From Macrostomum lignano (Eukaryota): DNA of 41,841 nt. This document shows, piece after piece, positions 3,648 to 41,841 of this stretch (position 1 is the stretch's first letter; every line of letters begins with the position of its first letter). The position numbers were made by a program, and so were the translations under genes. The DNA is taken from the NCBI GenBank assembly GCA_002269645.1, contig NIVC01004565.1, forward strand, positions 1-41,841. Reading direction: 5' to 3'. The notes under the pieces are model-generated. The model saw only the letters and a program-made list of their open reading frames with translations, did not search any database and was not told the origin of the DNA.

Positions 3648-6281
3648 GGCTTGTCTCCTAGTGGGCGCCCTTTGGTCTTTCTGGGTGTGGGCGCCCCTGT
3701 CTCTTGGTTGGGCGCCCCTGTCTCTTGTTGGGCGCCCTTGTCTCTTGGTTGGGCGCCCCTGTCTCTTGTTGGGCGCCCCTGTCTCTTGTTGGGCGCCCCT
3801 GTCTCTTGTTGGGCGCCCCTGTCTCTTGTTGGGCGCCCCTGTCTCTTGTTGGGCGCCCCTGTCTCTTGTTGGGCGCCCTTGTCTCTTGGTGAGCGCCCCT
3901 GTCTCTTGGTTGGGCGCCCCTGTCTCTTGTTGGGCGCCCCTGTCTCTTGTTGGGCGCCCCTGTCTCTTGTTGGGCGCCCCTGTCTCTTGTTGGGCGCCCT
4001 GTCTCTTGGTGGGCGCCCCTGTCTCTTGGTGGGCGCCCCTGTCTCTTGGTTGGGCGCCCCTGTCTCTTGTTGGGCGCCCCTGTCTCTTGTTGGGCGCCCT
4101 TGTCTCTTGGTGGGTGCCCTTTGTCTTTCATGGTGTGGGCGCCCCAGTCTTTTAGTGGGCGCCCCTGTCTCTTGGTGAGCGCCCCTGTCTTTTGGTGAGC
4201 GCCCCTGTCTCTTGGTGGACGCCCCTGTCTCTTGGTGGGCGCCCCTGTCTCTTGGTGAGCGCCCCTGTCTCTTGTTGGGCGCCCCTGTCTCTTGGTGGGA
4301 GCCCTTTGTCTTTCTGGGTGTGGGCGCCCCTGTCTCTTGGTGAGCGCCCCTGTCTCTTGGTGAGCGCCCCTGTCTCTTGGTGGGAGCCCTTTGTCTTTCT
4401 GGGTGTGGGCGCCCCTGTCTCTTGGTGGGTGCCCCTGTCTCTTGGTGGGTGCCCCTGTCTCTTGTGAGCGCCCCTGTCTCTTGGTGGGTGCCCCTGTCTC
4501 TTGGTGAGCGCCCCTATCTCTTGTTGGGCGCCCCTGTCTCTTGTTGGGCGCCCCTGTCTCTTGTTGGGCGCCCCTGTCTCTTGTTGGGCGCCCCTGTCTC
4601 TTGGTGGGAGCCCTTTTTTCTTTCTGGGTGTGGGCGCCCCTGTTTCTTGGTGAGCGCCCCTGTCTCTTGGTGGGAGCCCTTTGTCTTTCTGGGTGTGGGC
4701 GCCCCTGTCTCTTGGTGAGCGCCCCTTTCTCTTGGTGGGTGCTCTTTGCCTTTCTGGGTGTGGGCGCCCCCGTCTCTTGGTGAGCGCCCCTGTCTCTTGG
4801 TGGGTGAACCTGTCTCTTGGTGAGCGCCCCTGTCTTTTGTTGGGCGCCTATGTCTCTTGTTGGGCGCCCCTGTCTCTTGGTGGGCGCCCCTGTCTCTTGG
4901 TGGGCGCCCCTGTCTCTTGGTGGGCGCCCCTGTCTCTTGGTGAGCGCCCCTGTCTCTTGTTGGGCGCCCCTGTCTTTTGGTTGGCGCCCCTGTCTCTTGG
5001 TGGGCGCCCCTGTTCTGGTGGGCGCCCCTGTCTCTTGGTGAGCGCCCCTGTCTCTTGGTGGGTGCCCCTGTCTCTTGGTGAGCGCCCCTATCTCTTGTTG
5101 GGCGCCCCTGTCTCTTGTTGGGCGCCCCTGTCTTTTGTTGGGCGCCCTTGTCTCTTGTTGGGCGCCTCTGTCTCTTGGTGAGCGCCCCTTTCTTTTGGTG
5201 AGCGCCCCTGTCTCTTGGTGGACGCCCCTGTCTCTTGGTGGGCGCCCCTGTCTCTTGGTGAGCGCCCCTGTCTCTTGTTGGGCGCCCCTGTCTCTTGGTG
5301 GGAGCCCTTTGTCTTTCTGGGTGTGGGCGCCCCTGTTTCTTGGTGGGAGCCCTTTGTCTTTCTGGTGTGGGCGCCCCTGTCTCTTGGTGGGTGCCCCTGT
5401 CTCTTGGTGAGCGCCCCTGTCTCTTGGTGGGTGCCCCTGTCTCTTGGTGAGCGCCCCTATCTCTTGTTGGGCGCCCCTGTCTCTTGTTGGGCGCCCCTGT
5501 CTCTTGTTGGGCGCCCTGTCTCTTGGTGGGAGCCCTTTGTCTTTCTGGGTGTGGGCGCCCCTGTCTCTTGGTGGGTGCCCCTGTCTCTTGGTGGGTGCCC
5601 CTGTCTCTTGGTGAGCGCCCCTGTCTCTTGGTGGGTGCCCTGTCTCTTGGTGAGCGCCCCTATCTCTTGTTGGGCGCCCCTGTCTCTTGTTGGGCGCCCC
5701 TGTCTCTTGTTGGGCGCCCCTGTCTCTTGTTGGGCGCCCCTGTCTCTTGTTGGGCGCCCCTGTCTCTTGGTGGGAGCCCTTTTTTCTTTCTGGGTGTGGG
5801 CGCCCCTGTTTCTTGGTGAGCGCCCCTGTCTCTTGGTGGGAGCCCTTTGTCTTTCTGGGTGTGGGCGCCCCTGTCTCTTGGTGAGCGCCCCTTTCTCTTG
5901 GTGGGTGCTCTTTGCCTTTCTGGGTGTGGGCGCCCCCGTCTCTTGGTGAGCGCTCCTGTCTCTTGGTGGGTGAACCTGTCTCTTGGTGAGCGCCCCTGTC
6001 TTTTGTTGGGCGCCTATGTCTCTTGTTGGGCGCCCCTGTCTCTTGTTGGGCGCCCCTGTCTCTTGGTGGGCGCCCCTGTTCTGGTGGGTGCCCCTGTCTC
6101 TTGGTGAGCGCCCCTGTCTTTTGTTGGGCGCCTATGTCTCTTGTTGGGCGCCCCTGTCTCTTGTTGGGCGCCCCTGTCTCTTGGTGGGCGCCCCTGTTCT
6201 GGTGGGTGCCCCTGTCTCTTGGTGAGCGCCCCTGTCTTTTGTTGGGCGCCCCTGTCTTTTGTTGGGCGCCCTCTCTCTTGG
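3648..6281. repeat. GC-rich minisatellite, about 20-bp unit GGGCGCCCCTGTCTCTTG(G/T)T with 21- and 25-bp variants (PHACTR intron 1)
   Basis: About 2.6 kb of directly visible tandem units. Variant units GAGCGCCCC... and GGGAGCCCTTTGTCTTTCTGGGTGT are interspersed. Confidence 0.97.
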
Positions 6282-9650: not shown

Positions 9651-9961
9651 GGGGGTTGCAGCCTAGTGGTCAGAGCGTCGGACTCACGACTTGAAGGTTA
9701 GGGGTTCGATTCCCTATCCCACTATGAACAATTTGTGTCCTTGAGAAAGACACTTAACTCTGCATCGCTTCAGTTCACCCAGCTGTAAAATGGGTGCCAG
9801 CATTAGCTGGGGTAACTGAGGGTGTGTGTGGCGACCCCCCAGTCCCTGGACTGAACAGCCGTACTCAGTCTTCAGATGCGCCGCGCAATAGCTGCGGCTG
9901 AGCTGTCGGTTGCACATCTGGCCCAATTGGGGCAGGTGTAATCAATGATTATATTATTATT
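9651..9961 (+). mobile_element. tRNA-derived CORE-SINE, copy 1
   Basis: A-box GCAGCCTAGTGG, B-box GGTTCGATTCC, CORE-like block TGTGTCCTTGAGAAAGACACTTAAC...CAGCTGTAAAATGGG, ATT tail. Flanking direct repeat TTAAACGTGT at 9636-9645 and 9960-9969. Confidence 0.9.
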
Positions 9962-14165: not shown

Positions 14166-14520
14166 ATGCTCTGGATCATAGAATGTGTGCTCTGGATCAT
14201 AGAATCTGTGCTCTGGATCATAGAATGTGTGTTCTGTATCATAGAATGTGTGCTCTGGATCATAGAATGTGTGCTCTGGATCATAGAATGTGTGCTCTGG
14301 ATCATAGAATGTGTGCTCTGGATCATAGAATGTGTGCTCTGGGTCATAGAATGTGTGCTCTGGATCATAGAATGTGTGCTCTGGATCATAGAATGTTTGC
14401 TCTGGATCATAGAATGTGTGTTCTGGATCATATAATGTGTGCTCTGGATCATAGAATCTGTGCTCTGGATCATAGAATGTGTGCTCTGGATCATAGAATA
14501 TGAGCTCTGGATCATAGAAA
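14166..14520. repeat. 21-bp minisatellite GGATCATAGAATGTGTGCTCT, about 17 copies
   Basis: Tandem units directly visible, with a degenerate lead-in at about 14100-14165. Confidence 0.97.
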
Positions 14521-16846: not shown

Positions 16847-17130
16847 AAATAATAATAATAATTGATTACACAGATGTGCAACCGACAGCTCAGCCGCAGC
16901 TATTGCGAGGCGCATCTGAAGGCTGCGTGCGGCTGTTCAGTCCAGGGACTGGGGGGTCGCCACACACCCTCAGTTACCCCAGCTAATGCTGGCACCCATT
17001 TTACAGCTGGGTGAACTGAAGCAATGCAGAGTTAAATGTCTTGCTCAAGGACACAAATGGTTCATAGTGGGGCAGGGAATCGAACTCCCGACCTTCAAAT
17101 TGTGAGTCCGATGCTCTAACCACTAGGCTA
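16847..17130 (-). mobile_element. tRNA-derived CORE-SINE, copy 2
   Basis: Reverse complement of the 9651-9961 element. Slightly 5'-truncated and missing 16 nt near the tail. Confidence 0.9.
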
Positions 17131-17996: not shown

Positions 17997-18030
17997 GAGA
18001 GATTGTTGGAGCTCAGCTCAGAGTTGAGTT

Positions 18031-18590
18031 CAGCTATGAATATGAGCCAACTCAGCTATGAACAGGAGCCAACTCAGCTATGAATATGAGCCAACTCAGC
18101 TATGAATATGAGCCAACTCAGCTATGAATATGAGCCAACTCAGCTATGAACAGCAGCCAACTCAGCTATGAACAGCAGCCAACTCAGCTATGAACAGCAG
18201 CCAACTCAGCTATGAATATGAGCCAACTCAGCTATGAACAGGAGCCAACTCAGCTATGAATATGAGCCAACTCAGCTATGAATATGAGCCAACTCAGCTA
18301 TGAATATGAGCCATCTCAGCTATGAACAGCAGCCAACTCAGCTATGAACAGCAGCCAACTCAGCTATGAACAGCAGCCAACTCAGCTATGAATATGAGCC
18401 AACTCAGCTATGAATATGAGCCAACTCAGCTATGAACAGGAGCCAACTCAGCTATGAATATGAGCCAACTCAGCTATGAATAGGAGCCAACTCAGTTATG
18501 AATAGGAGCCAACTCAGCTATGAACAGGAGCCAACTCAGCTATGAATATGAGCCAACTCAGCTATGAATAAGAGAGCTCAGATATGAATA
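18031..18590. repeat. 22-bp minisatellite CAGCTATGAA(TAT/CAG)GAGCCAACT, about 25 copies
   Basis: Tandem units directly visible, starting 35 bp upstream of the UBL4A ATG. Confidence 0.97.
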
Positions 18591-19176
18591 GGAACCATTT
18601 TTATTGCTAGATATGATTCAGATATTTTAACAGAAAATGCAGAAGATTTCATAACTAAGGTGGTTGAGACGCTATAGATGCTGAGAGCAGTTGATGATTG
18701 GGATACTCAGGGACTTAGTCAACCATAAACGGTACAAAAATAAAGCTGAAGCACACAACCACTGGTTGCCAACAGTCTCCAATGACAACAGAACGCACTG
18801 TCCCATTCCCAAAGTTCAGCGCCGGGTCTAAAAATCAATAGACCACGGCAAACACGCAAGAAATGTTTATTAATTTCCTTTCTTCTCTTTCGCAGGCGCC
18901 AAAGGCGAAGCAAAATAAAAATGCACGCAAACAGACAACATCAGCAAAGAGAATTTACCAAAGCACGCAGGACAAGAGCAATGCAATCGGACAAATTAAT
19001 TTGAGTAAAATACAGGAAACACTATTTCTTAGAAATTATTCGAGGCAAATGCACAAAAATTGCTTTTATATTTCGATCATTTTTTATCTTTCCAAGCAAA
19101 AAATGTCTGAAATGACAAACAATATCATTATTCCCTGGTTTCCTCCTAATAAAACCACTGCTTATTCATATTTAAA

Positions 19177-19490
19177 GGGGGTTGTAGCCAGTGGTTAGAG
19201 GGTCGGACTCGCGACTTGAAGGTCGGGAGTTCGATTCCCGATCCCACTATGAACAATTTGTGTCATTGAGCAAGACATTTAACTCTGCATTGCTTCAGTT
19301 CACCCAGCTGTAAAATGGGTGCCAGCATTAGCTGGGGTAACTGAGGGTGTGTGGCGACCCCCCAGTCCTTGGACTGAACAGCCGTACGCAGCCTTCAGAT
19401 GCGCCTCGCAATAGCTGCGGCTGAGCTGTCGGTTGCACATCTGGCCTAATTGGGGCAGGTGTAATCAAATATTATTATAAATTGTATTAT
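19177..19490 (+). mobile_element. tRNA-derived CORE-SINE, copy 3
   Basis: Same head (B-box GAGTTCGATTCC), CORE block and tail as the 9651-9961 copy. Confidence 0.9.
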
Positions 19491-20053
19491 TATACTCTAT
19501 TTGAACCAGCCTCAAATATTTTCTAAGCTTTTGTGAGGCCTACGCTTGGTAACTATAGATGAGAGTACATCAAAATTCAGAGAGACAGGCAGACAAGGGA
19601 ATACAGGTTTAAGCATCCATCAAGAAATTCTAACAGAACAACATTTCACTGAGAACTAATCTCCAGTTGCGATATTCAATAGACTAAGCAATAACAAAGT
19701 CACCCCGAGGATAAAAGCTCAAACCAAAAAGCGCACTGAACAAGGGTTACCCAAGCCTCCTATTTGCTTTCACAAAGCAGAGAGTAAACCTTACTTTACT
19801 AATGAAAATTCAACAAAATTAAGCAAACTCGAGAAACTTGCAACAGTTGAAAATTCTAAATACGAGTATAGTGTCGCAATGGGCTTGGAATTCGAATGAC
19901 ACGCGCGCACAATCGCACGTACGAGGGTATGCCATAAAGCGTATAACTTATCACTAGGCGTGCACAATTGCTGCTTGAACTGTTGAAATTTGCCCTAACT
20001 AATAAATTGACACTTTGAATCATTTGTTGTCACTCTATCAGTAAGATACAGGG

Positions 20054-20749
20054 ACTGTCACTCTCGACCATTGGACTATCACTATTGACAATAGACTGTT
20101 ACTATTGACCATAGACTGTCACTCTTGATCATAGACTGTCACTCTTGACCATAGACTGTCGCTCTTGACCATAGACTGTCACTCTTGACCATAAGCTGAC
20201 CCTCTTGACCATAGACTGTCACTCTTGACCATAGGCTGACCCTCTTGACCATAGACTGTCCCTCTTGACCATAGACTGTCGCTATTGACCATAGACTGTC
20301 ACTCTTGACCATAGACTGTCACTCTTGACCATAAGCTGACCCTCTTGACAATAGACTGTCACTCTTGACCATAGGCTGACCCTCTTGACAATAGACTGTC
20401 CCTCTTGACCATAGACTGTCGCTATTGACCATAGACTGTCACTCTTGACCATAGACTGTCGCTCTTGACCATAGACTGTCACTCTTGACCATAGGCTGAC
20501 CCTCTTGACCATAGACTGTCCCTCTTGACCATAGACTGTCGCTATTGACCATAGACTGTCACTCTCGACCATAGACTGTCACTCTCGACCATAGACTGTC
20601 GCTATTGACCATAGACTGTCACTCTCGACCATAGACTGTCACTCTCGACCATAGACTGTCGCTATTGACCATAGACTGTCACTCTTGACCATAGACTGTC
20701 CCTCTTGACCATAGGCTGTTCCTCTTGACCATAGACTGTCCCTCTTGAC
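20054..20749. repeat. 20-bp minisatellite GACCATAGACTGTCACTCTT, about 35 copies
   Basis: Tandem units directly visible downstream of the SRP14 stop codon. Confidence 0.97.
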
Positions 20750-26302: not shown

Positions 26303-29300
26303 TCCTATATACTAAAAATGGTCTGTCTGTGTCTATGTGATCGATTAGAGAAAAAATGGCTGGACCGATTTTGTTCGAACTTGCACTGTTCGATCAGAAA
26401 TTTTCCCGTGACTGTACATGCATCGTGGCTAAGAAATTGCTCGATGCTAAAGGCATTAAATATTCGAAAAACATGCTTTTTTGCAAAGGTCAAGCAAACT
26501 TTTCGACTTGAAATGCATTGTAAGAATGCTAGAGAAAAAACTGACTGGTTGAATTCTGATTCTGAAATAGATTGCATCATAACTGAATTGTAACTCCGAC
26601 TTGAATTGAAAATGCAGTGTGGAAGCGTAGCACCAGACTTGATTTAAATTGTGTAACCATATTGTTAACTGATACTGACTGACTGAGAAACTGATTATGT
26701 CATAACTGCTTCGTGTGATTTACTCTATGCTTGGATTTTAAAGTGTTGAATTATATAAGTGAAAAATTTCATGTTATCAAAACGATGAGAGCTAGCCTAG
26801 AGGTGAACAAACTGAAATGCTAAATGCAGCGACGATGGTTCATATTTTCATAGAGTGGAATATTTTTAATTAAAGCTTTTCAACGTCAGGAAAACTAAAA
26901 GACTTTAAAAAAAAGCGTCATATAAAAATCATAGATGCGTCATTTAAAAAATCATAGAAGCGTCATGTAAACAATCATAGAAGCGTCATGTAAAAAATCG
27001 TAGAAGCGTCATATAAAAATCGTAGAAGCGTCATTTAAAGAATCATAGAAGCGTCATGTAAACAATCATAGAAGCGTCATGTAAACAATCATAGAATCGT
27101 CATGTAAAAAATCGTAGAAGCGTCATGTAAACAATCATAGAAGCGTCATGTAAACAATCATAGAAGCGTCATGTAAACAATCATAGAAGCGTCATGTAAA
27201 CAATCATAGAAGCGTCATGTAAACAATCATAGAAGCGTCATGTAAACAATCATAGAAGCGTCATGTAAACAATCATAGAAGCGTCGTGTAAACAATGATA
27301 GAAGCGTCATGTAAAAAATCATAGAAGTGTCATGTAAAAAATCATAGAAGCGTCTTTTAAAAAATCATAGAAGCGTCATATAAAATCGTAGAAGCGTCAT
27401 GTAAACAATCATAGAAGCGTCATGTAAACAATCATAGAAGCGTCATGTAAAAAATCATAGAAGCGTCATGTAAACAATCATAGTAGCGTCATGTAAAAAT
27501 CATAGAAGCGTCATGTAAACAATCATAGAAGCGTCATGTAAACAATCATAGAAGCGTCATGTAAACAATCATAGAAGCGTCATGTAAACAATCATAGAAG
27601 CGTCATGTAAACAATCATAGAAGCGTCATGTAAACAATCATAGAAGCGTCATGTAAACAATCATAGAAGCGTCATGTAAACAATCATAGAAGCGTCATGT
27701 AAACAATCATAGAAGCGTCATGTAAACAATCATAGAAGCGTCATGTAAACAATCATAGAAGCGTCATGTAAACAATCATAGAAGCTTCATGTAAACAATC
27801 ATAGAAGCGTCATGTAAACAATCATAGAAGCGTCATGTAAAAATCATAGAAGCGTCATGTAAACAATCATAGAAGCGTCATGTAAACAATCATAGAAGCG
27901 TCATGTAAACAATCATAGAAGCGTCATGTAAACAATCATAGAAGCGTCATGTAAACAATCATAGAAGCGTCATGTAAACAATCATAGAAGCGTCATGTAA
28001 ACAATCATAGAAGCGTCATGAAACAATCATAGAAGCGTCATGTAAAAAATCATAGAAACGTCATGTAAAAATCATAGAAGCGTCATGTAAAATCATAGAA
28101 GCGTCATGTAAAATCATAGAATCGTCCTGCAAAAACTCGTAGAAGCGTCATGTTAAAAATCATAAAAGCGTCATGTAAAAAATCATAGAAGCGTCATGTA
28201 AAAATCGTAGAAGCTTCATGTAATAATCATAGAAGCGTTATGTAAAAATGATAGAAGCGTCATATAAACAATCATAGAAGCGTCATGTAAACAGTCATAG
28301 AAGCGTCATGAAACAATCATAGAAGCGTCATGTAAAAATCATACAAGCGTCATATAAACAATCATAGAAGCGTCATGTAAACAATCATAAAAGCGTAATG
28401 AAACAATCATAGAAGTGTCATGTAAACAATCATAGAAGCGCCATGTAAAAAATCATAGAAGCGTCATGTAAACAATCATAGAAGCGTCATGTAAACAATC
28501 ATAGAAGTGTCATGTGAACAATCATAGAAGCGTCATGTAAACAATCATAGAAGTGTCATGTAAAAAATCTTAGAAGCGTCATGTAAACAATCATAGAAGC
28601 GTCATGTAAACAATCATAGAATCGTCATGTAAAAAATCGTAGAAGCGCCATGTAAACAATCATAGAAGCGTCATGTAAACAATCATAGAAGCGTCATGTA
28701 AACAATCATAGAAGCGTCATGTAAACAATCATAGAAGCGTCATGTAAACAATCATAGAAGCGTCATGAAACAATCATAGAAGCGTCATGTAAAAAATCAT
28801 AGAAACGTCATGTAAAAATCATAGAAGCGTCATGTAAAATCATAGAAGCGTCATGTAAAATCATAGAATCGTCCTGCAAAAACTCGTAGAAGCGTCATGT
28901 AAACAATCATAGAAGCGTCATGTAAACAATCATAGAATCGTCATGTAAAAAATCGTAGAAGCGCCATGTAAACAATCATAGAAGCGTCATGTAAACAATC
29001 ATAGAAGCGTCATGTAAACAATCATAGAAGCGTCATGTAAACAATCATAGAAGCGTCATGTAAACAATCATAGAAGCGTCATGTAAACAATCATAGAAGC
29101 GTCATGTAAAAAATCATAGAAACGTCATGTAAAAATCATAGAAGCGTCATGTAAAATCATAGAAGCGTCATGTAAAATCATAGAATCGTCCTGCAAAAAC
29201 TCGTAGAAGCGTCATGTAAAAAATCATAAAAGCGTCATGTAAAAAATCATAGAAGTGTCATGTAAAAATCGTAGAAGCTTCATGTAATAATCATAGAAGC

Positions 29301-31283
29301 GTTATGTAAAAATGATAGAAGCGTCATATAAACAATCATAGAAGCGTCATGTAAACAGTCATAGAAGCGTCATGAAACAATCATAGAAGCGTCATGTAAA
29401 AATCATACAAGCGTCATATAAACAATCATAGAAGCGTCATGTAAACAATCATAGAAGCGTCATGAAACAATCATAGAAGTGTCATGTAAACAATCATAGA
29501 AGCGTCATGTAAACAATCATAGTAGCGTCATGTAAAAATCATAGTAGCGTCATGTAAAAAATCATAAAAGCGTCATGTAAAAATCATAGAAGCGTTATGT
29601 AAAAATGATAGAAGCGTCATATAAAAAATCATAGAAGCGTCATGTAAACAATCATAGAAGCGTCATGTAAAAATCATAGAAGCGTCATGTAAACAGTCAT
29701 AGAAGCGTCATGAAACAATCATAGAAGCGTCATGTAAAAATCATAGAAGCGTCATGTAAATCATAGAATCGTCCTGCAAAAATCGTAGAAGCGTCATATA
29801 AAAATCATAGAAGCGTCATGTAAACAGTCATAGAAGCGTCATGAAACAATCATAGAAGCGTCATGTAAAAATCATAGAAGCGTCATGTAAACAATCATAG
29901 AATCGTCCTGCAAAAATCGTAGAAGCGTCATATAAAAATCATAGAAGCGTCATGTAAACAATCATAGAAGCGTCATGAAACAATCATAGAAGCGTCATGT
30001 AAAAATCATAGAAGCGTCATGTAAACAATCCTAGAAGCGTCATGTAAACAATCATAGAAGCGTCATGTAAAAATCATAGTAGCGTCATGTAAAAAATCAT
30101 AAAAGCGTCATGTAAAAATCATAGAAGCGTTATGTAAAAATGATAGAAGCGTCATATAAAAAATCATAGAAGCGTCATGTAAACAATCATAGAAGCGTCA
30201 TGTAAAAATCATAGAAGCGTCATGTAAACAGTCATAGAAGCGTCATGTAAAATATCATAGAAGCGTCATATAAAAATCATAGAAGCCTCCTTTAAAAACT
30301 AATGAAAGTGTCATTTAAAAAATTAAGAAGCATCATGGTAGAATAAAAGAAGCGTCATGTTAGACATGAAAGGTGTCATGTAAAAATTAAATGAAGCTAT
30401 AGTGCTGGGCTAGGGAGAAAAACTGAGACGTCAAGGCTCACAGAGAATAACTGAGATTATGGGGGCGTTTCTGAGATGTCAAAGCAACAGTCAGAAGCTA
30501 CTTCAAAGTTCATTTACTTTACTCAATTTTTTTATTACATTTTTTGTTGGCTCGCCACGGGGGGGGCGCTGATAGAAGAAGAGTCATGTAAAAAATAAAA
30601 GTAGCACTATGTATACATAAAAGAAAAGTCATGTCGAAGTTAAAAGATTCATTTGGGAATTGCTACGATGTCAAAGCGAGGGAATCGTTATAGTGCTGTG
30701 ATTCTTAAAGAAGGAATCACTAAAATGTCAAGGCTTAGGGGAGAAGAATTGCTGAGATTCAAGGCTTTAGGTTGGGTTAAAGTTAGGTTTAGGTCAGGTG
30801 TGGGTTGAGGGTTATATTTTATCGGGTTTCAAGGTTAACGGGGGATTTTTCAGATTTCAAGGTTTATGGAGGCCATCGCTGACATGTCAAGGCTTACGGG
30901 GGGGGATAGCTGACATGTCAAGGCTCACGGGGGTATAAATGAGATTTCAAAGCTAAAGTCAGAAGCTACATGTAGTTTATTGAAAACTTTTTATTACATT
31001 ATTTGATGCCTCCTCAGGGGAGGGATCGCTGATAAAAAAAGCGTAATGTAAAAAATAAAAGAAGCTTCATGTCGAAGTTAAGAGATTCATTTGGGAATCC
31101 ATTGCATTGCTGAGATGTCAGGGGGGGAGTTGATATGTTAAAGCTTGTGGGGGGGATTACTGACATGTCAAGGCTTACAAGGTTTGACAGGAGATTTTTT
31201 AAGATTTCAAGGATACATGTAGCTTATTAAAAAAACGTGTATTGCATTTCTTTGGCTCCCCAACGGGGGGCGTAGATTGCTAG
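26303..31283 (+). mobile_element. Non-autonomous Helitron with central tandem repeat
   Basis: 5' end A|TCCTATATACTAAAA followed by GTCTGTCTGT and GGCTGGACCGATTTT, typical of Helitron-N 5' motifs. 3' GC hairpin GCTCCCC-AAC-GGGGGGC (31255-31271), 8 nt, then CTAG|T. Inserted between A and T, no TSD, no Rep/Hel ORF. Confidence 0.82.
26916..30290. repeat. 23-bp minisatellite CATAGAAGCGTCATGTAAACAAT, about 150 copies
   Basis: Tandem units directly visible. Homogeneous core at about 27400-28020, with variant blocks duplicated further right. Confidence 0.98.
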
Positions 31284-31608
31284 TCTATACTAATGATGAT
31301 ATCTACATGAAACTCTATAAAAATATTTTTGACAAAATTATCTTTCATTTAAAATATTGGTTTAGTATATTCTATTATTATATTTCATTTTATAAGTAAA
31401 AATAGCCTGTCATGTTACGACCATGCTTATATGGAATGAGCCAATAGGTAAACATTATATAAAACTTTAGGTATTTTGCCTTTGGCCTTCAAGGGGGTTT
31501 GCCAATTGTGATCCTATAGTATAGCACTATCTAACCATAACAAATATTTTCTGCTTCTAGTCTAAAAGTGAACTATATACTACTTTTTTAAATATTCCCT
31601 GTATATGA

Positions 31609-33817
31609 TGTAACCGCCCTTGTCGCCTGTCCGCTCCGTAGAGAGACGAACGCATGACTAGAGGGGGCAATGACCGTAGGCTGCCTATGACCGGGCAATG
31701 ACCTGACGGACCTCCAGCACCAGACTGTCCCGCCCACATGATTAGTAGCTTTGGTAGCGCTTCGTGACCAGAGGGCCAAGGACCCACATGGACCCCACCT
31801 GTAGCCAAGGTGCAATAGTTGGTCACTCGGTCATAGTATGACCGAGTGGCTGCCACCACTCTATGTGACCTGGCGCACCTGGATCTTTCTACCAGACCTC
31901 TCGAGGCTAGAGCCCCGCCTGGATTGGTTACCAGGGGATTTAGGCTAACAGGGGAGACGCATGCAGCCGAGTACAGGGACTCTGCTTGGGGCATGATCGG
32001 GAACTCTGGGCTCAATCCTGGAGGATTTCTCAGCAGGGGATCCTTTGTGGCTGTGAGCGAGGCTGACTTGCGACTTTGATTACTAAGAGTAGTATGAGGC
32101 GAACATGTACTGTCTACAGTTTAGATTGCTCAGGGCGAAGGGACGCGTTAGCATGGGGTTGCAACCTTCCTACTGCCATGCTGTGCCAAGACTCGCTAAT
32201 CCCTCTACTGCACGCACACGCGGCCCCGCAGCACGCACTCACAGGCGGGCTTTGCACGGGGAGAGGCCATTAGCTTACCCAAACTTCCTTATGCTTTGCC
32301 ACCCCGGGAGAAAGGCTTAGCAAGCCATGAGTGAAATGATGGTGAAAGATTGAATAATGATGAAGTTAGTTAATAGTTAATAATTAGGCCCTTAGGCAAA
32401 TAAGCAGGCAATCAGGCGGCTTCACTATTGAGTAAAATACAGCAAAAGATACGGTATCACAATTGGCTCAGCTCTCTAATCAGACAATGGAAAATAGGCA
32501 AACCCCGGATAAGCAAAGGCAATTAGAGCACAAATTAGTAGCAGGAACTTACCGGCAGCTGCACAGAGAGAGAGAGAGGCGGAGTGACCGAGGGCGGCTG
32601 TAGGCTGCAGTCAGGCAGACGGTGAAGCGGCGATGCGCTGGAGCGACGAGGCGCTGATGTAGATCAGGCGATGCTGATGATGCTGGGCGGTATCAGACCG
32701 CTGGCCGATAGGCGAGCTCACTTGGGGAGCTAAGGATAACTTGGCGGTAACAGACCGCGGGCCGGCAGGGATTCGTCTTATAGACGAATGGGTCAGAACT
32801 CAATCTGACAGCAAGTCCAAAGAAGGACGAGGAGAGGAACAGAGATAAACTCAGTTGAGTATTCTCATGCCGAAATCGCTTCCTTTTATAGACCTCACAG
32901 CCGCCTCCTCAAGGTCGTTACCATGGCTCCCTCTCTCTGATTGGCTGCCGGCAGAATGACGTCAGAATGAGTCATGATGAGAAGCATGAGACCGGCATAG
33001 CAACATGAGAAATCGGGAAATTGCGCAATCCGGAGGTGGGGTGGGGGGATAATTGGCGCAGCGGGTGGTCGCGAAAGTGTTGCGCAAGCAAACATTGAGA
33101 ACAATAGGGCTGGGGTCGAGAACAAAGGAATTGGAAATCGGGATAATTGGGGAAAACTGAGAACAATGGAAAAGTAAACATTGGAGAAAAGGTGATAATT
33201 AGGTGCGAAAACGAGAACAAAAGAAAGAGAAAATCGGAGAAAATGTGATAATTGGTGGGGTCGAGAGAACAAAAGAAGCAAAAACGAGAACAATAGAAGC
33301 GGAGGTGGGGTGGGTGTCACATGAGAAATTTGGGAAGGAGAACAATAGCGTGAGAAAAGGTTGCGCAAGAGAGGGGGATGAGTCATCGATGAGTCACCGA
33401 GGGGGAGAAGGGGTCACACGACTTGCGTCACCGTTTGGGAGTTTGAGAGGGGATGGGGAGACGGTGAGCACACAAAGTACTGTAAGTAGACACAGGGAAA
33501 GAGGGGACAGCGCAGGAAAAGAGTGCAGAGGGAGACAAAAAAAGGGAGGAGGTAGAGAAAGTACAGGAAGAATAGGGCGGGAACAGAAGAGATAGGGTAG
33601 AGGGGGAGGTACAGAAAGGGGTAGGGGCTCCGGAAAGGCAGGTGTGGCGGCAGGAGAGACGGGACCAAGGCAGCAGGAGGGGTGCAGCAGAGCGGGAGTC
33701 TCCAGGCCCGGTCGGAGACCTGGCCGAGTCTCGACAGCTCTGTGCAGAGGGTGCACGGGATAGGAGGCACTTTCAAAAAGTTCCCATGCCCTATCCCGCG
33801 ACCAGAGCGTGGTTACA
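31609..33817 (-). mobile_element. 3' LTR (2209 bp)
   Basis: Bounded by perfect 7-bp inverted ends TGTAACC...GGTTACA, abuts a PPT, and contains a TATA/CCAAT promoter. The second LTR copy is not in the window for comparison. Confidence 0.8.
32883..32974 (-). promoter_or_regulatory. LTR core promoter: AP-1, CRE, CCAAT, TATA
   Basis: TGAGTCA 32968-32974, TGACGTCA 32957-32964, CCAAT 32944-32940, TATAAAAG 32890-32883, in canonical order for minus-strand transcription. Confidence 0.7.
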
Positions 33818-33837
33818 TCACACCCCCACTGCCTTTT
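33818..33837 (-). other. Polypurine tract
   Basis: AAAAGGCAGTGGGGGTGTGA immediately precedes the TGTAACC LTR start on the minus strand. Confidence 0.75.
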
Positions 33838-34425
33838 GTGACGGAACTGGTTCCGTCATCATCACTGCCCAACATGGAACCACACAGACGGGATCGGGAT
33901 CTCAACCGAACGTGAAATCACAGAATTAACAAACCGCGAGCGGGAATGGAAAAAGGCGATAAAATAGAGGGGATAGCAATAAATTCACAAAACGAGATAC
34001 ATAGGTTGGAGTGCAATACAGAATTTCAAAAATTTCAACTGTTGCTGTGGCTAAAGTGGGAGGGGGGAAACACAGACAGCGCAATAGTAGGGAGAAAAAT
34101 AGCGAATTGTCAACAATAAATTATCATAATTGGATAGAAGCGCAGCTGGGAAAGAGAGGAAACGGGGAAGGGTGAGGGAAGTGGGGAAAAAGAAGGGGGG
34201 AAGGGTTGCTAGCACACAGCCAAGGGCAGAGCCTCGGGGAGAATGACGATTACACAGGGGAAAAATACTAATGCAGCGCAGTAAATTAATAAGCTAATTT
34301 CGCCGGGAGTTCAACCGCACGGAGGCCTAGCGTCCTTGAAGGCTCGGACCCCGCTTCAGCCAGTCAGAGGGCTTCGGGGCGATCGGTTGTAGGCTGGGAG
34401 GCGCCGCGCCGTGCGCTGGCCACTG

Positions 34426-34538
34426 TATAAAAGGCGCCACTGATAACGGGAGCCGGCTGCCTGCAACCTACACGGAGTCGCAGTTTCCAACCAAGGCACT
34501 CAGCGCGATTTTCCAAACTATACAACTACTCGGTAAGT
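34426..34538 (+). promoter_or_regulatory. Candidate antisense promoter (TATAAAAG) and first-exon splice donor
   Basis: TATAAAAG at 34426-34433 in GC-rich context, and CG|GTAAGT donor after 34532. Confidence 0.4.
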
Positions 34539-34879
34539 CCCATCACCAACCTGATTTCCTTTCGCCTATACGTTAAACGAAATCTACCCACTCGCCATGC
34601 CTTTCGTTTTAAACTGAGCCAATTGCAGTAATAATATATGGCCTTTCTTACGGTAAAAGTAGTGAGCAGCCAACACAGAGCCATTTTTAGGAATTTTTAG
34701 GATAATGACACAACAATGACTCGTATATTGGTTATTAAAGTTTAAAAATGAGTATTATGGAAGAACCGAATATTAATAGGATAATTTCACACACACACAC
34801 ACGACAAACACAAACCGCAAGGGGCGGAAAGGCGGGTCGGACCGGCCGGCGGACGTCGCTCAGCAGGCAGTCGGCATCC

Positions 34880-36013
34880 TTACTCGAAATGGGCCTCTTG
34901 ATTTAGCTGGTACGGGCCATATGCCGCCACCTGAGCCATGGCACTTGCCCATGCTTCCACATAACGTTGGGCTGCCGCGGCCGTGAGCACCACTCGGTGC
35001 CATCGGCTAGGCAAGATGTCGTTGCGCAGCACGCCCCTCAACTGCGGCAGAGTCGGGATGCCCAGGGCTTGGCATTGGACGACGAAGGCCGCATTCCGTA
35101 CTTGTTGCAGCCGTGTCAGAGTTGGTGCAGACAGGGGCGGCTGCGCGATTGCAAAATGCTGCAAAGTGCCACGGGGCACCTCGGCCAGGCCCGCGTAGCC
35201 GGGCTCAACGTCGCCCAGGGCCGCCAACACCCACCCACAGCGGCGATTGAACCGTTGCGAGAGAGTGGCGGCCCAGGCCACTGTGGCAAACGGCGCATAG
35301 AGGAGGGGCGCAGAGGCCGGCGCGGAGGCCGCAAGAATGCCGTCGTGGATGACGAGAGCCTCTTCTCATTCGGCGCCCTCGCTCAGGAAGCCCCAGAGCA
35401 GCCCTGGCAGGTCCGCAGGAAGCATGCCCCAGCGGCTGGCCAAGCTGGCCAGGCCAATCAATAGCCGGGCTCTCTGGGTTGGTGTCAGTTGTCTAGTCAT
35501 CTGAGAGGAGGCTGCGCAGCTGATGATCACCTTCTTGTAGACCGGCCGATCGCAGGTGCTGAAGATTGCTGTGATGGGGGCACAGGACGGCGGCCGGGCT
35601 GTCAGGTGCGATGGTTCCTCATCCACAACCTTGCGGAGGAACTTGGCGGCCTGCCGGACTAGGTCGCCGAGGGCGTATTTGTAGGCGCTCTGGGCCGCTG
35701 CCTCGATGTACATTAACAGCGTATTGTCAACCAATCCCAGCAGGGCCACTTTTGACAGGATGAGCAGACAGGGCCGGTCCAGGTTGTCGCGGAGTTGGCG
35801 CTCTAGAGTCGCATGCCTGTCCTCGGCCTGGAGTGGGCCATGATAGGACTCAAGCCCGACCCAGTGCACCAGATCCCTAGCTGTCGCCGAAGGTTCGCCA
35901 GCCACCTGACCCCAATCGACTTCTTCTCTTTGCAGGGCGATGTCCACACTTCGGCGGCTGTTGGGCAGAACATCACGCAGGCGGCGGGCCGCCTCGCCGA
36001 ATTCGGCCGCCAT
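34880..36013 (-). pseudogene. Accessory ORF X, 377 codons with one in-frame TGA (35366-35368); unknown product, possibly nucleoprotein-like
   Basis: Track ORFs 35366..36013 and 34880..35281 are in the same frame. The stretch between them is open (EEALVIHDGILAASAPASAPLLYAPFATVAW). Leu/Ala-rich, helical-looking protein at the env position. Confidence 0.65.
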
Positions 36014-36101
36014 GTCCGAAATGTCCGCGGTGTCGCCCCCAGCATTGGCCGGGTCGATTGTCTCCGAAAGAATCCGAAAGAGGAATTAATCATTAATTTG
36101 A

Positions 36102-36397
36102 CTGCCACCAGTTTGATGTACTATTATAAAAGAGAAAGGGGAACCTACCACCATCTTGGCGCATTACCAAAGAAAAGAAAAGGAGGATCAGCCACCATTT
36201 TGAGAGAGGTTGCTAGGGAAAACTGCCACCAATTGTACATTAACAGGGAAGAGAAAGAGGGAACCCGTCACCAATTAGAGTGGATTGCCCGGGGAAACTG
36301 CCACCATTTGCCCTTCTACCAGAGGAGAGGAAGACGAAAAACTGCCATCACTTAGAGGTGTATCATTAAAAGAAGGCGGGGAAGAAGGCTACCACTA
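36102..36397 (-). repeat. Dispersed array of 8 TGGTGGCAG-like motifs
   Basis: Exact copies at 36102, 36223 and 36298; copies with 1-2 mismatches at 36145, 36189, 36265, 36342 and 36389. Spacing 33-47 nt. Confidence 0.8.
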
Positions 36398-36560
36398 CTT
36401 GATCACCTAGAGCTCAAGGGAAGGAGAGGGAATGAAGAAAGGAAGAAACCCCCAGGAAGGCCACTACCACACGCCATAAAGTTAAAATCCCCATCTATCT
36501 ACATCCTAATACCCGGCTAGTTCCCTACTTCTATTTCATCCCTTAAATTCTCATTTTCAG

Positions 36561-36967
36561 GATTCCGGCCGCTAGTAGCCGAGCCCATCCTTGAAGAGGA
36601 GTCCGACTACGAAGCGCCCGAAGACAGCCATTCAGAGCCGGACGCCCCCTCTGATTCTGGGCCGGCTGCGCCATCTGGTGACATAGGCGCCGCGGCTCCC
36701 GGGCCATGCGACCGCCGGGCCGCCAGCGAACCAGCGTCCGGGGCCGGTTGGCATCCGGTACCACCGCCGTTGTCAGCCCGAGCGCACGCTCCGCCGCCGG
36801 TCGCCGCGGTGACGCCCGTGGCTGCCGCTCCACAGCCCTTGCCAACCCCTGTGGTGGGGACCGACGGCTCCTGGCATTTGGTCGTGCTGTCGACGGCCCT
36901 AATAGCCGGTCTCACAATGCACTGGCTACTGCTCTTGGAGCTATTTCTGCGGCTTCCCAACTGCTGA
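36561..36967 (+). CDS. Candidate antisense exon encoding an acidic/Pro-Ala-rich protein with a C-terminal hydrophobic helix
   Basis: Strong acceptor TTCTCATTTTCAG|G at 36560. Frame is open from 36563 to TGA at 36965-36967, reading FRPLVAEPILEEESDYEAPED...HLVVLSTALIAGLTMHWLLLLELFLRLPNC*. No ATG found for this frame upstream of the hydrophobic helix. Confidence 0.4.
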
Positions 36968-37555
36968 TGCTGGTGGTTCTTAATGCTTACTTACTAATTC
37001 TGAACTATCTGTCCCCATAACTTGACTTTAATTACTTACCTGACTTTACATTGACTAGACCACTGGCCTACTCTAAACTAATTGCTGCCCCATTTGCCTG
37101 ATAAACTTAATTACATTGAATGCCCCCCCCCCCTATTGCCTCATCGAAACCAATTAAAAGTTTCCCAAAATCGGACTTTCACAAAGTGTGAACAAACACA
37201 CGAAATCAGACCTAAAGGTGCTAATTTCCTACGGTCCCAGACTTCCATTGTTCCCAGAAAATCTTGAACAGCGGGGCAGGACCTCCTGTGGAGCAGACCC
37301 ATAGAAATTTTACTAGTTTCCAAGTTAATATTTACTGATAGGGAATTAACGCATACTGTACGGGCCTAATTTTCGAGCTAAAATCTTAGATATTTAAACA
37401 ATACCAACGAGCACGAGGTCACAACATAAATTCGAGTAATAGAGGGCATACGTAAATACGCGAAAAGCGGTCTCCAACGGGGCAATACGAGCAAAATTTC
37501 GACACGCGAATCGGGGGGGGATTAAGCAATCACTGGCTAGCTACCGATCTGTTAC

Positions 37556-38080
37556 TCAGCGGGGGTCGAATGGGAGACTCACACCTAGCAAGTAAACCTT
37601 TTCTGTTCGATAGTCTATGATAGCATGCGTACTGGCTAGAAAAGCACTACCCAGGAGGGAAACTGCTGCTGAATTGCCAACGACCAGAAAGAGGATTCTC
37701 ACCTCTTCTAGCCCAATAACTGCTGTGAGGGTGGCCTGGCCTAGCATCTCTAATTCATTGCCCGTGTAGGACACGGCCTTCACACATGGGGGCTCCAGGG
37801 CCTCCACACTCTGTCCGGTAATTTTAGTAAAGTCTTTGACTGTTAGCAAAGACAGCGCACTGCCCCCATCTACCAGGAGGCGGGTGGGAACATTCTCAAT
37901 TGGCAACTCTACAACAATATCTCTCCCGCGTTGTCCTCTAGCTGGTCTTGGCTGATAGAAATCGGGTACCTTCTCAAATCTAAACTTCTTGCTGGGCGGA
38001 CGTGGCAGGTTAAGCTGGGCCCTAGAGAGGGAACGGGGCTGAGTTCGGGCCGGGCCATTCAGCCCTCCCACGGGTTTCCC
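37556..38080 (-). CDS. pro: Retropepsin-type aspartic protease domain, reached by -1 frameshift and ending in a stop codon
   Basis: RLLVDGGSALSLL active-site-like motif, flap SYTGNEL, and SLLGSAFL / IIDY C-terminal motifs of Gypsy proteases. TGA at 37556-37558 with no RT following. Confidence 0.85.
   Translation of the reverse strand, partial: GKPVGGLNGPARTQPRSLSRAQLNLPRPPSKKFRFEKVPDFYQPRPARGQRGRDIVVELPIENVPTRLLVDGGSALSLLTVKDFTKITGQSVEALEPPCVKAVSYTGNELEMLGQATLTAVIGLEEVRILFLVVGNSAAVSLLGSAFLASTHAIIDYRTEKVYLLGVSLPFDPR
38018..38080 (-). promoter_or_regulatory. -1 programmed ribosomal frameshift signal
   Basis: Slippery heptamer G GGA AAC (38080-38074), 8-nt spacer, stem GGGCUGA/UCAGCCC (38065-38059 with 38042-38036), and a possible second stem GGCCC/GGGCC. 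The zero-frame UGA lies inside stem 1. Confidence 0.75.
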
Positions 38081-39501
38081 GAACCCGGGGGCTCTTCAGG
38101 CGTGGAAGGAGGAGGCATCAGAGCTTGCGCGCGCAGCTGGGCGAGCCTCTCCTGCCTCTCCCTGGTAGCCTCGTCTAACATATCTCTGCCCCACTTCTAA
38201 ATCTTGCCTATGGCGATCAGGTGGCGCACGAAGCTGCAATTGCTGCTGCTGCACACCCGGCGCCGGCGGCGTGGGCGCCTCCTGAATTGCAAGCGGCGGG
38301 GGCTGGGGTTGGCGCCAGTTCCTACTGCTATTAGAGCCGCCCTGCCCCTGCCTCCAGTTCCTGTTGGGAGTGGCGGGGCGAGGGGGCCTCATCTGCTGGG
38401 GCAGCTGGGCAACAGACTCTGCTGTCGCCTTCATAGTTTCATTGAGCTGCACCAGCTGGTTGCGCAGATCCTTTTGCGTTTGCTCTAGCGCGCCCAACCT
38501 CTCTTGCATCTCTGATAGGCCGTCACCGTCCTCCTCCGTCTCGTCAGCTTCCTGGTTCACCATCCTGACCCACTTGCGAGGGGGCCTGGGTGGCTGCTGA
38601 GGTTGCAGACGGACTTCGGTGCGGGACTCAGACCTGGGCGGGCCACTACTGTCCCATTTCCCGGCTAAGTCTGCGGCTTCTAACAGGGCTTGCTGCTGTT
38701 CTAACACCTGCTCAATTGTCTGCCAGCGACGGCTCAACAGATCTTGTCTGACCTGGCGGGGGAGCTTAGCGTGTTCCAAGTAGGTGTACACGATTTCTTG
38801 TTCTCTCTGCTCACCCTGAATCTGAGGAAACATGGCCGTTATCTGAGATCTTATCATAGCAGCAAAAGCACTATGTGATTGGCCGGGTTTCTGGCTCAGA
38901 TTCTTCAGCTTATTTCTCTTAGCCAGATCAGTGTTGGCCTCGCCCAACTGCTCTCCTAATCTAGATACGAACTGCTCAAAGGGCAATTGCCCGTCCAATC
39001 CTAAGGCTAAGTTCTGAAATTCACCTGGGAGGTGCGAGATGAGCACCTGCTTCCTAGCCTGATCTCCTACAGTTCTCTCCGCGTCCAGCTTGTAGATCAT
39101 TCTCTCTACCCATTGCACAAAACAGTGTTCGCCGGGAGAGAACTTTTCTACGTAGATTTTCGGCCTCTGGGCGTCTTGGCCCATGTTTAGCTGGTTAAAC
39201 GCATTGGCTATAGCGGCAACTAAGTCTCCTAGCTGCGGGACTGCCTGAGGAGGATTCTGGGCTGCGTCCGGGGAGCAGCGGCGGCTGCTGCGCCACCCTG
39301 ATTGGGAGCGGGAGCTGCTACTCCTTCATCTGGTTCCTCAACTACTACTGCTTCTGGAGGCTGAGGGACCTGGTTACCAGCGGCTGCGGCCATTGCGGCT
39401 GCGGGGGCGGCAACTGCTGGGGTGTCAGCGGCCGAGGGTGGTTGACCAGGGGCGTCTGCGCACACAGCTTCTACGACCCTATCTCCACGCGCCCGTGACA
39501 T
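38059..39501 (-). pseudogene. gag: gag (retrotransposon capsid), about 480 aa after correcting two compensating indels
   Basis: Capsid-like core KIYVEKFSPGE..FVQWVERM...KLKNLSQKPGQSHSAFAAMIRSQ in ORF 38096..39184. The Ala/Pro-rich N-terminus from ATG 39501 joins it if one C is added in the C4 run near 39270. The C-terminus WGRDMLDEATRERQERLAQLRAQALMPPPSTPEEPPGSGN lies in the ATG-39501 frame. Confidence 0.8.
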
Positions 39502-41832
39502 GTGAATGCCGGATAGCTGGGGGAGTACCCACTACCGGGAAGGAAAAGAAAAGAAAACCGGGGCAACTACAGGTAAAGACCGAAAAGTTGACCGAAACAC
39601 ACAAACACACTCACACACACAAACACAGACAAAACCACACACTTGCGGCGTCGAAGAAAACAAATTGAAAAACGGGTGGCTCCACATAATTCCATTTAGG
39701 CAGTCCTAACGGCTTCACTCGGCAAAGCACACTGACTCAAACTGCGGCTACCACTACCAGTTGTCTATGGCACATCCTGACAGGGAAAAATTGGCTATTC
39801 AGAGAGACTTGACCTTCATTTTGCGGCCATGCTAGGGAACCCAAATGCCGACCGTAAACGGACTTACGGCACCTGTACAAATTCTCCCTAGGGTTGCGCG
39901 CCGGACCCCATTTCCTTAAGAAAGCTACTACGAAGAAGCGTTGGCGCCTGGACCCAAAACCCAAGTGGCGGGAGCAATCCCCATGGAGGTCCTCCCACTT
40001 TACTGCCCTTGCACAGCCGGAAAACCGTCGGAGTCCAGTGGGGCTTCCACCTCAGGACTACCAATCTTGTACACGCAGCTTCACAAAAGGCGGGAATCCA
40101 GCTCCCCTACGTCTAGCAGAATCCACAAAAACCAAGACCTCCCCTTCTGTTCAGAGCGAAGGCGCGCAGCGGGAGTCCAGACTAAACTGTCCCCGAAGTT
40201 TTCAGGTTAGGCGGATTACAAGCCTGAAACTCTCGCCCGCTTTCCTAGGATAAACAGACCTAAGTGAGTATCTTCCTGAAATGCTTGCCCCTCCGATACT
40301 CCACCTTTGCTGCAGCTCGAAATAGCATACTTGGGACCTTTATCTGATGGCGGAGAAAGTCCTACAGTTGTCAGCCTCTCCACTTTACTGTACTTGAACG
40401 CCCGGTTCTACCAGGAGACAGGTACCTCCATCTAGGTTATTCCAAGTTGCCAGAGACGTCAACCCGTCTTATTGACCTTGCGGGGCACTGGGGTGGCACT
40501 CTATGTACCGGGGCTTTACATTAGGGGACTGCATGCAACCCTGCGTCTAAGCGCTTAGTGGGCTGCAGTGGCCAGAGGGGAAAAGAGTTGCGCAATAGCG
40601 CCTTCCTGGGCCAGGCTGACAAGTCGGGCAGGAGCGCCGTTCTACCGGGTCGGCTGATTGGCACACCCACCTCCCCTATCAGACTGACAGCAGGGGGAGG
40701 AATTACTAAAGGAGGAGAATGCAGCAGGAAACATTACGAGATCACTGGGGCCACCAGACTTCCAGTACACCATTCCAATACTCACTGAACTCCACTATCA
40801 ATAGGATACTATGGGATCTACTATTTCCAGCCACTGCACCAGCCCAAATGCAACCAAAGCAGTTACTACCGGGTCTGCAATACAGTGGGGAGAGTCAGCA
40901 GACACGTTGGGATCGAATCCCAGCCATGAAGGCACCAGGGGTTACCGCAGAATTCAGGTCCGGGCTGATCGCAGGTATTCCATAGGAGGTGACACTTTTT
41001 TTAGCCCGAGATTTTTGAGTCACACTGATACCCTACAGAGATACAATCACACCGCTATTCCCATTCCTGCGAGACTTTGGTATCCCCCAATGTTTCCAAG
41101 GCCATGACTACTGCTTCCCTTACTATGCATATATAGCGAGTTCCCATAGCCCTTGATAGCTGTTCATTCTAATGGACAAACAAAACACGCTCCGGTCTCT
41201 ACGCATTTCTAGGATTAACTGAGCGATCAGGGAGAGCGACTGTTACACTCCCCCGAGTAAAAGAAAGAGGTAGGACAAAGGAAAGAAATGCTTCGCTTCC
41301 AGCTTCCCTGTGCTTGCGTGATGAGGCTTCCGTACCTGGCTGGCTGTCCACCTCAACACTCACACAGTTCTGCTGTAGGCTAGGCGAGAAAGAAAGGGAG
41401 GGGAAATAAAGCATATTACCATGAAATAGAAAGTGAGTCCGGAAAATTCACTTCGCAGTTCTTCACACACTCCGTTACCAGGTAGCTATTCTGATTGTAA
41501 TCAAATCCGCTCGTCTACCACTTCACACTTTCTAGCGCTGAAACTGATCGGCTAAATTAATTTTAAATTGAATCAGGGCTTTGGCGAATGATGAATTTGG
41601 AAATTTCGAATGAATTGACGAATTCGCAGCCCGAAAATTTGAAAAAGTTACATTAATATTTTTGGATTTTGTTGCCTCACGCCATGGGAAGAAGAAGAAT
41701 CGATTGGCGATTTTACGATTGGTAGATTTAGACATGGCACTCTTTGCGCTTCGGCCACCATTCTGAGGGATGCCACAGGTGCGCTTGTCACATCTAAACC
41801 ACCAGTCCGAAACTCAGCGCTGTTTGCACCAG

Positions 41833-41841
41833 ATCCCACCG
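41833..41841 (-). other. Partial primer-binding site (tRNA-Leu AAG/TAG type)
   Basis: Minus strand CGGTGGGAT equals nt 10-18 of TGGTGGCAGCGGTGGGAT, the complement of the tRNA-Leu 3' end ...ATCCCACCGCTGCCACCA. The remaining 9 nt would lie just outside the window. Confidence 0.7.

Follow-up and report, generated by a model that had tools for sequence, protein, structure and literature searches.

The host gene PEG10 combines gag, a GGGAAAC -1 frameshift site and a protease without reverse transcriptase (RT), and is a fixed single-copy gene that lacks long terminal repeats (LTRs). LTR elements that encode Gag and no pol include TR-GAG, which reportedly has a single open reading frame (ORF); as in the case of the zebrafish elements Bik-1/2, its partner is either complete or not identified, unlike that of the Macrostomum lignano element described below. 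Bik-1/2 likewise encode Gag without pol in a single ORF, as far as the consulted part of that report goes (PMC12067270). In contrast to these single-ORF elements, an LTR element on the minus strand (31606-41841) of M. lignano contig C4565 (GenBank NIVC01004565.1), which in its entirety, i.e. 41,841 nt, is the window of this analysis, has gag and protease in overlapping frames. The original prediction, made from the letters of the window, had likened this layout to that of PEG10. The layouts are indeed alike, but where a domesticated gene would occupy a single fixed locus without LTRs, the element is multicopy and mobile, carries LTRs and has an empty allele.

Paired systems offer a closer comparison. 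In the wheat pairs RLG_Sabrina_SA/RLG_Wilma and RLG_Quinta/RLG_Cereba, according to the portions of the reports at hand, an element with Gag or Gag-Pro and without RT and integrase (IN) accompanies a coevolved partner with which it has the primer binding site (PBS), polypurine tract (PPT) and LTR ends in common, and a supply of Gag has been proposed (PMC9744471, PMC11302176). The wheat partner encodes the full set (a protease is named for Cereba), so that the dependence is one-way, whereas the M. lignano partner has no protease; moreover, the entire LTR and leader are near-identical between the partners here. Closest in logic are the complementary, non-autonomous pararetroviruses of plants, ePVCVL/ePVCVL2 (PMC5491270) and the bipartite florendoviruses (PMC10377300), i.e. 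two defective reverse-transcribing genomes with complementary genes, the non-coding regions of which have been homogenised by recombination (PMC5491270). In the sections consulted these are caulimovirid fossils without integrase (PMC5491270, PMC10377300), and both partners of the PVCV-like pair have a protease, the split separating coat protein from RT (PMC5491270), whereas here an integrating and apparently recently active LTR element is split at the protease. The consulted part of a 2023 review describes multipartite genomes as common in viruses but not in Ortervirales, bar the fossil florendoviruses (PMC10377300). Our own full-text literature search, to which Repbase/Dfam, subscription journals and supplements were external and which does not establish absence from print, yielded no pair of LTR retrotransposons between which the protease marks the split.

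By comparing the window element (hereafter type A) with other elements of the same genome, we found a complementary partner (type B) with matching LTRs, leader, PBS and PPT that encodes RT, RNase H (RH) and IN. We consider it probable that the two constitute an obligately bipartite Ty3/gypsy LTR retrotransposon, the products and RNAs of which would meet in one particle, and A and B likely need each other to multiply. The original prediction had proposed, as the second of two options, one half of a two-component retroelement, and had suggested a search for such a partner; it had not foreseen that the partner itself is incomplete, lacking a protease, nor that the arrangement recurs in a second family.

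Together, A and B have the features of Ty3/gypsy elements (Metaviridae), i.e. LTRs with TG...CA ends, a tRNA-derived PBS, a PPT and a 4-bp target-site duplication (TSD), with the RT-RH-IN order and the gypsy-type RT contributed by type B only. They deviate in that protease and RT-RH-IN reside on separate elements and that pol is accompanied by another capsid gene, diverged from that of A. Neither is an autonomous Ty3/gypsy element, as A is without RT/RH/IN and B without protease. Type A resembles semi-autonomous Gag(-Pro) elements in its intact, selected Gag-Pro without RT/IN; the complete autonomous partner of that class was not encountered, as the only partner found among the candidates scored has no protease. 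The 4-bp TSD and TG...CA ends also differ from the 3-bp TSD and CG...CG ends given for Troyka in the consulted part of its description (PMC12440569). The window feature is thus a real variant of Ty3/gypsy, with its predicted parts present apart from the corrections given below.

Type A, a gag-protease element without pol

The 3' LTR (31606-33820, minus strand; 2,215 nt, TGATG...CATCA) extends three nucleotides further at each end than originally predicted and is common to types A and B, as are the adjoining PPT (33821-33839, minus strand), identical to that before the 3' LTR of B copies, and the 3' untranslated region (UTR; 33840-34655, minus strand), from the end of which (~34655) A and B diverge. 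The leader (39502-41831, minus strand) has the predicted 2.3 kb and is essentially identical in both types. The contig ends within the PBS, the 3' part of which lies at 41832-41841 (minus strand); the full PBS, read from sister copies, complements host tRNA-Leu(AAG/TAG) genes at their 3' end, in agreement with the original assignment, and the four of 12 genomic matches to the PBS pattern that were scanned are all tRNA-Leu. The 5' LTR of the locus was recovered on contig C2691. It is preceded by the same TATA that flanks the 3' LTR (31602-31605), and an empty site with the same flanks and a single TATA is present on contig C6. Since the two LTRs differ by only 2 substitutions and 3 gap columns (99.8% identity), the insertion is recent.

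In intact copies gag (38059-39501, minus strand) encodes 481 amino acids (aa) with a capsid-like domain and a predicted coiled coil; no CCHC knuckle was found, and Pfam gives a weak match to PNMA (E 0.028). Its N-terminal arm, i.e. the first ~70 codons (to ~39292), is common to types A and B. In the window gag is split into three reading pieces by breaks that are probably sequence errors, because on C2691, which represents the same locus (5 mismatches, 39 gap columns), the frame of 481 aa is uninterrupted, as it is in seven of 14 other sisters examined. The ratio of nonsynonymous to synonymous substitution rates (dN/dS), a comparison that the original prediction had called for, is 0.10 for this gag (A1, i.e. 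type A of the first family) and indicates purifying selection. Intact copies have gag stopping four codons past an in-frame GGGAAAC, the predicted -1 frameshift heptamer (38074-38080, minus strand), and the aspartic protease ORF (37556-38095, minus strand) overlaps in the -1 frame. The protease ends in the clean stop predicted for it (37556-37558), at the same place in every sister examined. Its active-site motif, near 37865, is DGG and its Pfam match (PF13975, E 0.021) stays below the cut-off; a protease profile built from the pol proteins of relatives and seeded with the A proteases matches them with independent E-values of 1e-22 (A1) and 5e-24 (A2, i.e. type A of the second family).

This layout is common to dozens of near-identical sister copies. 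All 40 scored matches to the gag-protease DNA (the best 40 of 127 candidates) reach 98% identity or more, and the internal block with ORF X, far from being unique to the locus, has 30 full-length matches at 97% identity or more among 38. TSDs of 4 bp border four of the six A copies with two LTRs and readable flanks, C650 and the tandem copy C4958 being the exceptions.

As predicted, the region 33818-37555 holds no pol: neither a YxDD nor an FxDD motif occurs there in any frame, and tblastn with the RT, RH and IN of the partner gave no match anywhere in the window element. None of the sisters has its own pol after the protease. Pol homology past the protease stop is absent from 13 of 16 measurable A1 copies and is due to nested foreign elements in the other three, and no pol match was obtained in any of seven measurable A2 copies. 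The genome searches scored the best-ranking part of the candidates (the best 40 of 127, 150 of 962 and 150 of 4,333); within this scope neither family yielded a copy that combines protease and RT.

Type B and a second family

A search with the LTR led to contig C691, on which the LTRs, leader, first ~70 gag codons and 3' end of type A enclose a different core. A DNA search with the B coding region gave 14 matches, of which ten are ~100% identical; judged by flanking sequence these ten copies occupy at least six loci, and matched 4-bp TSDs were found for five of the copies. Contigs from several other samples of the same species carry the B coding DNA almost complete. The B ORF encodes 1,543 aa, comprising a capsid-like domain, a short proline-rich linker, a spacer, RT, RH and IN, the latter three detected by Pfam. 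A protease was not detected by Pfam, nor by the relatives' protease profile in six frames of any of 12 B copies, and there is no room for one, because only ~30 aa (B1) or 23 aa (B2) separate capsid and spacer.

In 24 of 31 spacer-bearing relatives the protease was detected, ending 7-22 aa ahead of the spacer, so that type A ends where the pol of B begins. In complete pol genes of relatives, the site of the split between A and B corresponds to the boundary of protease and spacer. A protease is present in 70 of 76 close RT relatives, among which the RTs of B1 and B2 form one clade (support 1.0), and the RT-RH of B is ~50-54% identical to that of protease-bearing relatives in the protein collection. 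Across relatives, similarity to the A protease follows similarity to the B RT (rho 0.55, n 89). The simplest history would be one in which the protease was lost from B and kept in A. A tapeworm gene model (P0067) with gag adjoining RT and no protease was not counted, as it is a single predicted protein.

The second family was recognised by two B-type elements, on C3095 and C1757, with an RT 72% identical to that of B1 and a distinct 2-kb LTR. There are 13 full-length matches to the LTR and leader of this family; among those fetched only C3095 and C1757 have pol, and the other ten consist of gag and protease without a pol match (the protease being truncated in C305). In the case of this family the active-site motif of the protease is DSG, and selection on it is strong (dN/dS 0.11; 0.21 for A2 gag). 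The same A/B pair is hence present behind unrelated LTRs, the LTR and leader of the two families having only a 38-nt PBS junction in common. In both families A is several-fold more numerous than B.

The coding and non-coding parts of the elements tell different histories. Capsid identity is 45% between A1 and A2 and 31% between B1 and B2, versus 21-27% between A and B. The leaders of A1 and B1 (C650 versus C936), by comparison, show no substitution in the first 2,200 aligned columns. In the 3' LTR, A and B differ by 8.3 substitutions versus 10.9 between A copies, the LTRs of A1 and B1 intermixing, and the window LTR with the adjacent 3' UTR is 97.9-98.9% identical to B copies. In the second family the leaders differ by 19-32 substitutions per 2,400 between A2 and B2, versus 23-92 among A2 copies. 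Because the proteins group by role and the cis sequences by family, the split looks old and maintained. Complementary gene sets are hereby combined with shared, homogenised cis sequences, as befits a bipartite element.

Probable interdependence of A and B

We regard it as fairly likely that A and B represent an old, stably segmented Ty3/gypsy lineage (a bipartite metavirus), of which neither segment replicates alone and which, as a pair, has diversified into at least two families. One segment would provide capsid, protease and exchangeable cargo, and the other a capsid-tagged RT-RH-IN. In mechanistic terms, the common LTR would ensure co-expression of the A and B RNAs, with A yielding Gag in abundance and, through -1 frameshifting, small amounts of Gag-protease. 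The capsid domain that B has retained could bring its polyprotein into the particle of A, in the manner of a normal Gag-Pol, after which the protease of A would cut this polyprotein and free RT-RH and IN. Either RNA could then be primed by tRNA-Leu, and by virtue of the common PBS, leader, PPT and LTR ends both could be processed by RT and integrase, so that both are copied and integrated. Template switching between co-packaged RNAs may preserve the identity of LTR and leader in spite of diverging coding parts, and type A, relieved of pol, could carry optional cargo (ORF X and an antisense gene).

Several observations weigh against such interdependence. Co-packaging, cleavage and frameshifting are all inferred from sequence; in the case of the predicted frameshift signal intact sisters have the heptamer in frame, but folding of the 70 nt downstream is not better than that of shuffled sequences (z -0.3 to +0.7, for folds other than pseudoknots), and no stimulatory hairpin stood out. 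The protease motif of A1 is DGG and not D[ST]G, its within-family dN/dS is uninformative (3 versus 3 changes, p 0.19; 1 versus 3, ratio 1.1), and the profile match is partly circular on account of its seed. A rare complete copy could have been missed, because only part of the candidates was scored. The 1,543-aa ORF is open in two of ten B1 copies, the other eight having frame breaks at differing positions, and both full-length B2 copies are broken at the capsid start, a position that is open in an older B2 fragment (C251). Gene conversion could homogenise the leaders equally well, and a search with the capsid and spacer region in other organisms gave no match, i.e. the split was not found in another species. 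Finally, B has a capsid with which it might form particles unaided, or some other protease might cut it, and the genome contains many other Ty3/gypsy families (RT identity up to 48%), at least two of those inspected having a protease.

These last points lead to the best surviving alternative, which we consider improbable though not negligible, namely a one-way dependence in which B is self-sufficient, with its own capsid and a pol that is either left uncleaved or cut by a protease of the host or of an unrelated element, and A is a Gag-Pro passenger like Sabrina_SA. The capsid-like domain of B, in a single ORF with pol, the other protease-bearing gypsy families, the several-fold excess of A in both families and the unusual DGG of A1 would fit. 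However, RT and IN of retroelements normally need proteolytic release, and the protease is lost from B and kept, under selection in the case of A2, in a partner with matching cis sequences, in two families.

It is very unlikely that A and B are defective derivatives moved by a complete master element missing from the assembly, as has been proposed for zebrafish Bik-1 in the consulted part of that study (PMC12067270). Such a master could have escaped notice in a fragmented assembly, the contigs of which frequently end in these LTRs, and in searches that scored part of the candidates. Against this, RTs of the B clade were not found outside B (no RT other than those of B1 and B2 exceeds 49% identity to B1 among the best 150 of 4,333 candidates), and among the contig pieces listed for three other samples the longest keep the A layout across the protease stop. 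Moreover, the capsids of A and B are ~75% different, beyond what a recent deletion from one master would give, and the pattern was found twice; capsid divergence and recurrence in two families together make a hidden master unlikely. That pol was simply deleted from this locus, or is missing through an artefact of assembly, is practically out of the question: the window contig does contain indel errors, and its 673-nt gap coincides with a contig boundary, but the gag-protease matches are near-identical throughout and all sisters examined share the stop.

Cargo, surroundings and implications

ORF X, predicted to have 377 codons, is a remnant (orphan cargo) in the window (34880-36063, minus strand), with an internal stop at 35366-35368 and its 5' part missing. 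Between 36063 and 36064 the window is without 673 nt that in sisters hold the promoter-like region and N-terminus of ORF X and the splice donor of an antisense unit; because C2691 ends exactly there, this gap is either a real deletion or an assembly mis-join. The position was considered as a hotspot of cargo insertion and rejected, as it marks nothing but the gap of the window copy itself, and other insertions are found at different positions. Intact ORF X encodes 449 aa from its ATG in C650, has a TATA/CCAAT-like upstream region in sisters, and is open in nine of the 14 sisters that carry it. Its dN/dS is 0.11-0.18, which indicates purifying selection, and that of its second-family counterpart, 27% identical, 0.13-0.14. 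As some mobile A copies are without ORF X, it is not needed in cis; it is optional cargo, broken in the window copy. C4958 (a tandem pair with a common LTR), C2503 and several second-family copies have a different short sequence in its place.

With regard to a possible env gene ahead of the 3' LTR, as in env-bearing retroviruses and errantiviruses, neither ORF X nor the antisense ORF matches a Pfam family, and ORF X gives no clear fold. In the case of ORF X, a word-indexed protein search gave no match and the ESM Atlas no usable one. A structure model from seven sequences, with a predicted local distance difference test (pLDDT) score of 61 (37 for the single-sequence model), had no Foldseek match at E 0.001 in the PDB or viral libraries, and its best VIA Z (7.2) was at background level. 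The credible outside relatives are two clusters present in Logan only; a third profile match was a false TPR-repeat match. A role as host-interaction or anti-silencing factor would be a guess. A decayed ORF X cassette, promoter region included, lies outside any type A element on C201 (72% DNA identity) and is a possible clue to the origin of the cargo. Two copies, C616 and C3922, have a 2.1-kb insertion with a CCGG duplication in the ORF X promoter region; it encodes a stand-alone, frame-broken integrase ~30% identical to that of B and resembles a DNA transposon of the Ginger/GIN type.

The antisense membrane-protein unit of the original prediction corresponds to a coding exon of 134 codons (36561-36967, plus strand) behind a splice acceptor, acidic and proline-rich with a hydrophobic C-terminal segment. 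It is under purifying selection as a protein, in its own frame only (dN/dS 0.23-0.34, versus 1.06-1.30, with stops, in three control frames), and the membrane anchor is predicted from hydropathy alone (KD19 maximum 2.0). A GT..AG joint into the exon, with the donor in the 673-nt stretch, was seen in one contig from one run guessed to be RNA; none of the sequencing samples listed as holding the element is on record as RNA. In second-family A copies with ORF X (C3287, C1987, C2406), the corresponding position is likewise occupied by an antisense ORF, of ~200 codons, that is not obviously homologous to the one of the first family. The predicted array of PBS-like seeds is present as eight degenerate units resembling the LTR-end/PBS junction (36102-36400, minus strand); it is absent from B1, and second-family copies have a single unit each.

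Further observations concern copies and flanks. In C2503 a gypsy element with its own repeats is nested in opposite orientation, and its pol of 1,578 aa begins, as judged by eye, with a cold-shock-like segment ahead of the protease. A dispersed repeat, detached from the family LTR and found on C1651, C1113, C93, C2895, C2635 and C83, contains 0.4-0.7 kb of internally deleted A1 protease and downstream sequence (74-84% identical). Solo LTRs are abundant: of 13 LTR starts with TATA in front, 12 lack internal element sequence (85-99% identical), 11 of them having TATA on both sides and one being interrupted, with several representing the same locus. The flank of the window element contains a high-copy repeat of ~165 nt (31284-31448; 1,771 candidates), and elsewhere the window holds a dispersed repeat of ~290 nt in three copies (9660-9952, 16871-17129, 19190-19475) and minisatellites with units of 20-23 nt (26913-30360, 3687-6281, 14167-14519, 18030-18597, 20053-20749). 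Sister copy C1445 sits in the same 23-nt satellite as found in the window; targeting of this satellite is unsupported, as 24 flank rows include a single clear case, besides two with one motif each.

If A and B indeed form an active, integrating bipartite element, they would offer a view of how genome segmentation starts and persists, and would allow the study of two diverged capsid proteins in one particle and of co-packaging that homogenises control regions. The pair is also a trap for annotation, as a B-type element looks autonomous and an A-type element looks like decayed junk. Similar pairs may hide in other genomes, where they could be found by searching for pol without protease together with gag-protease elements that have the same LTR.

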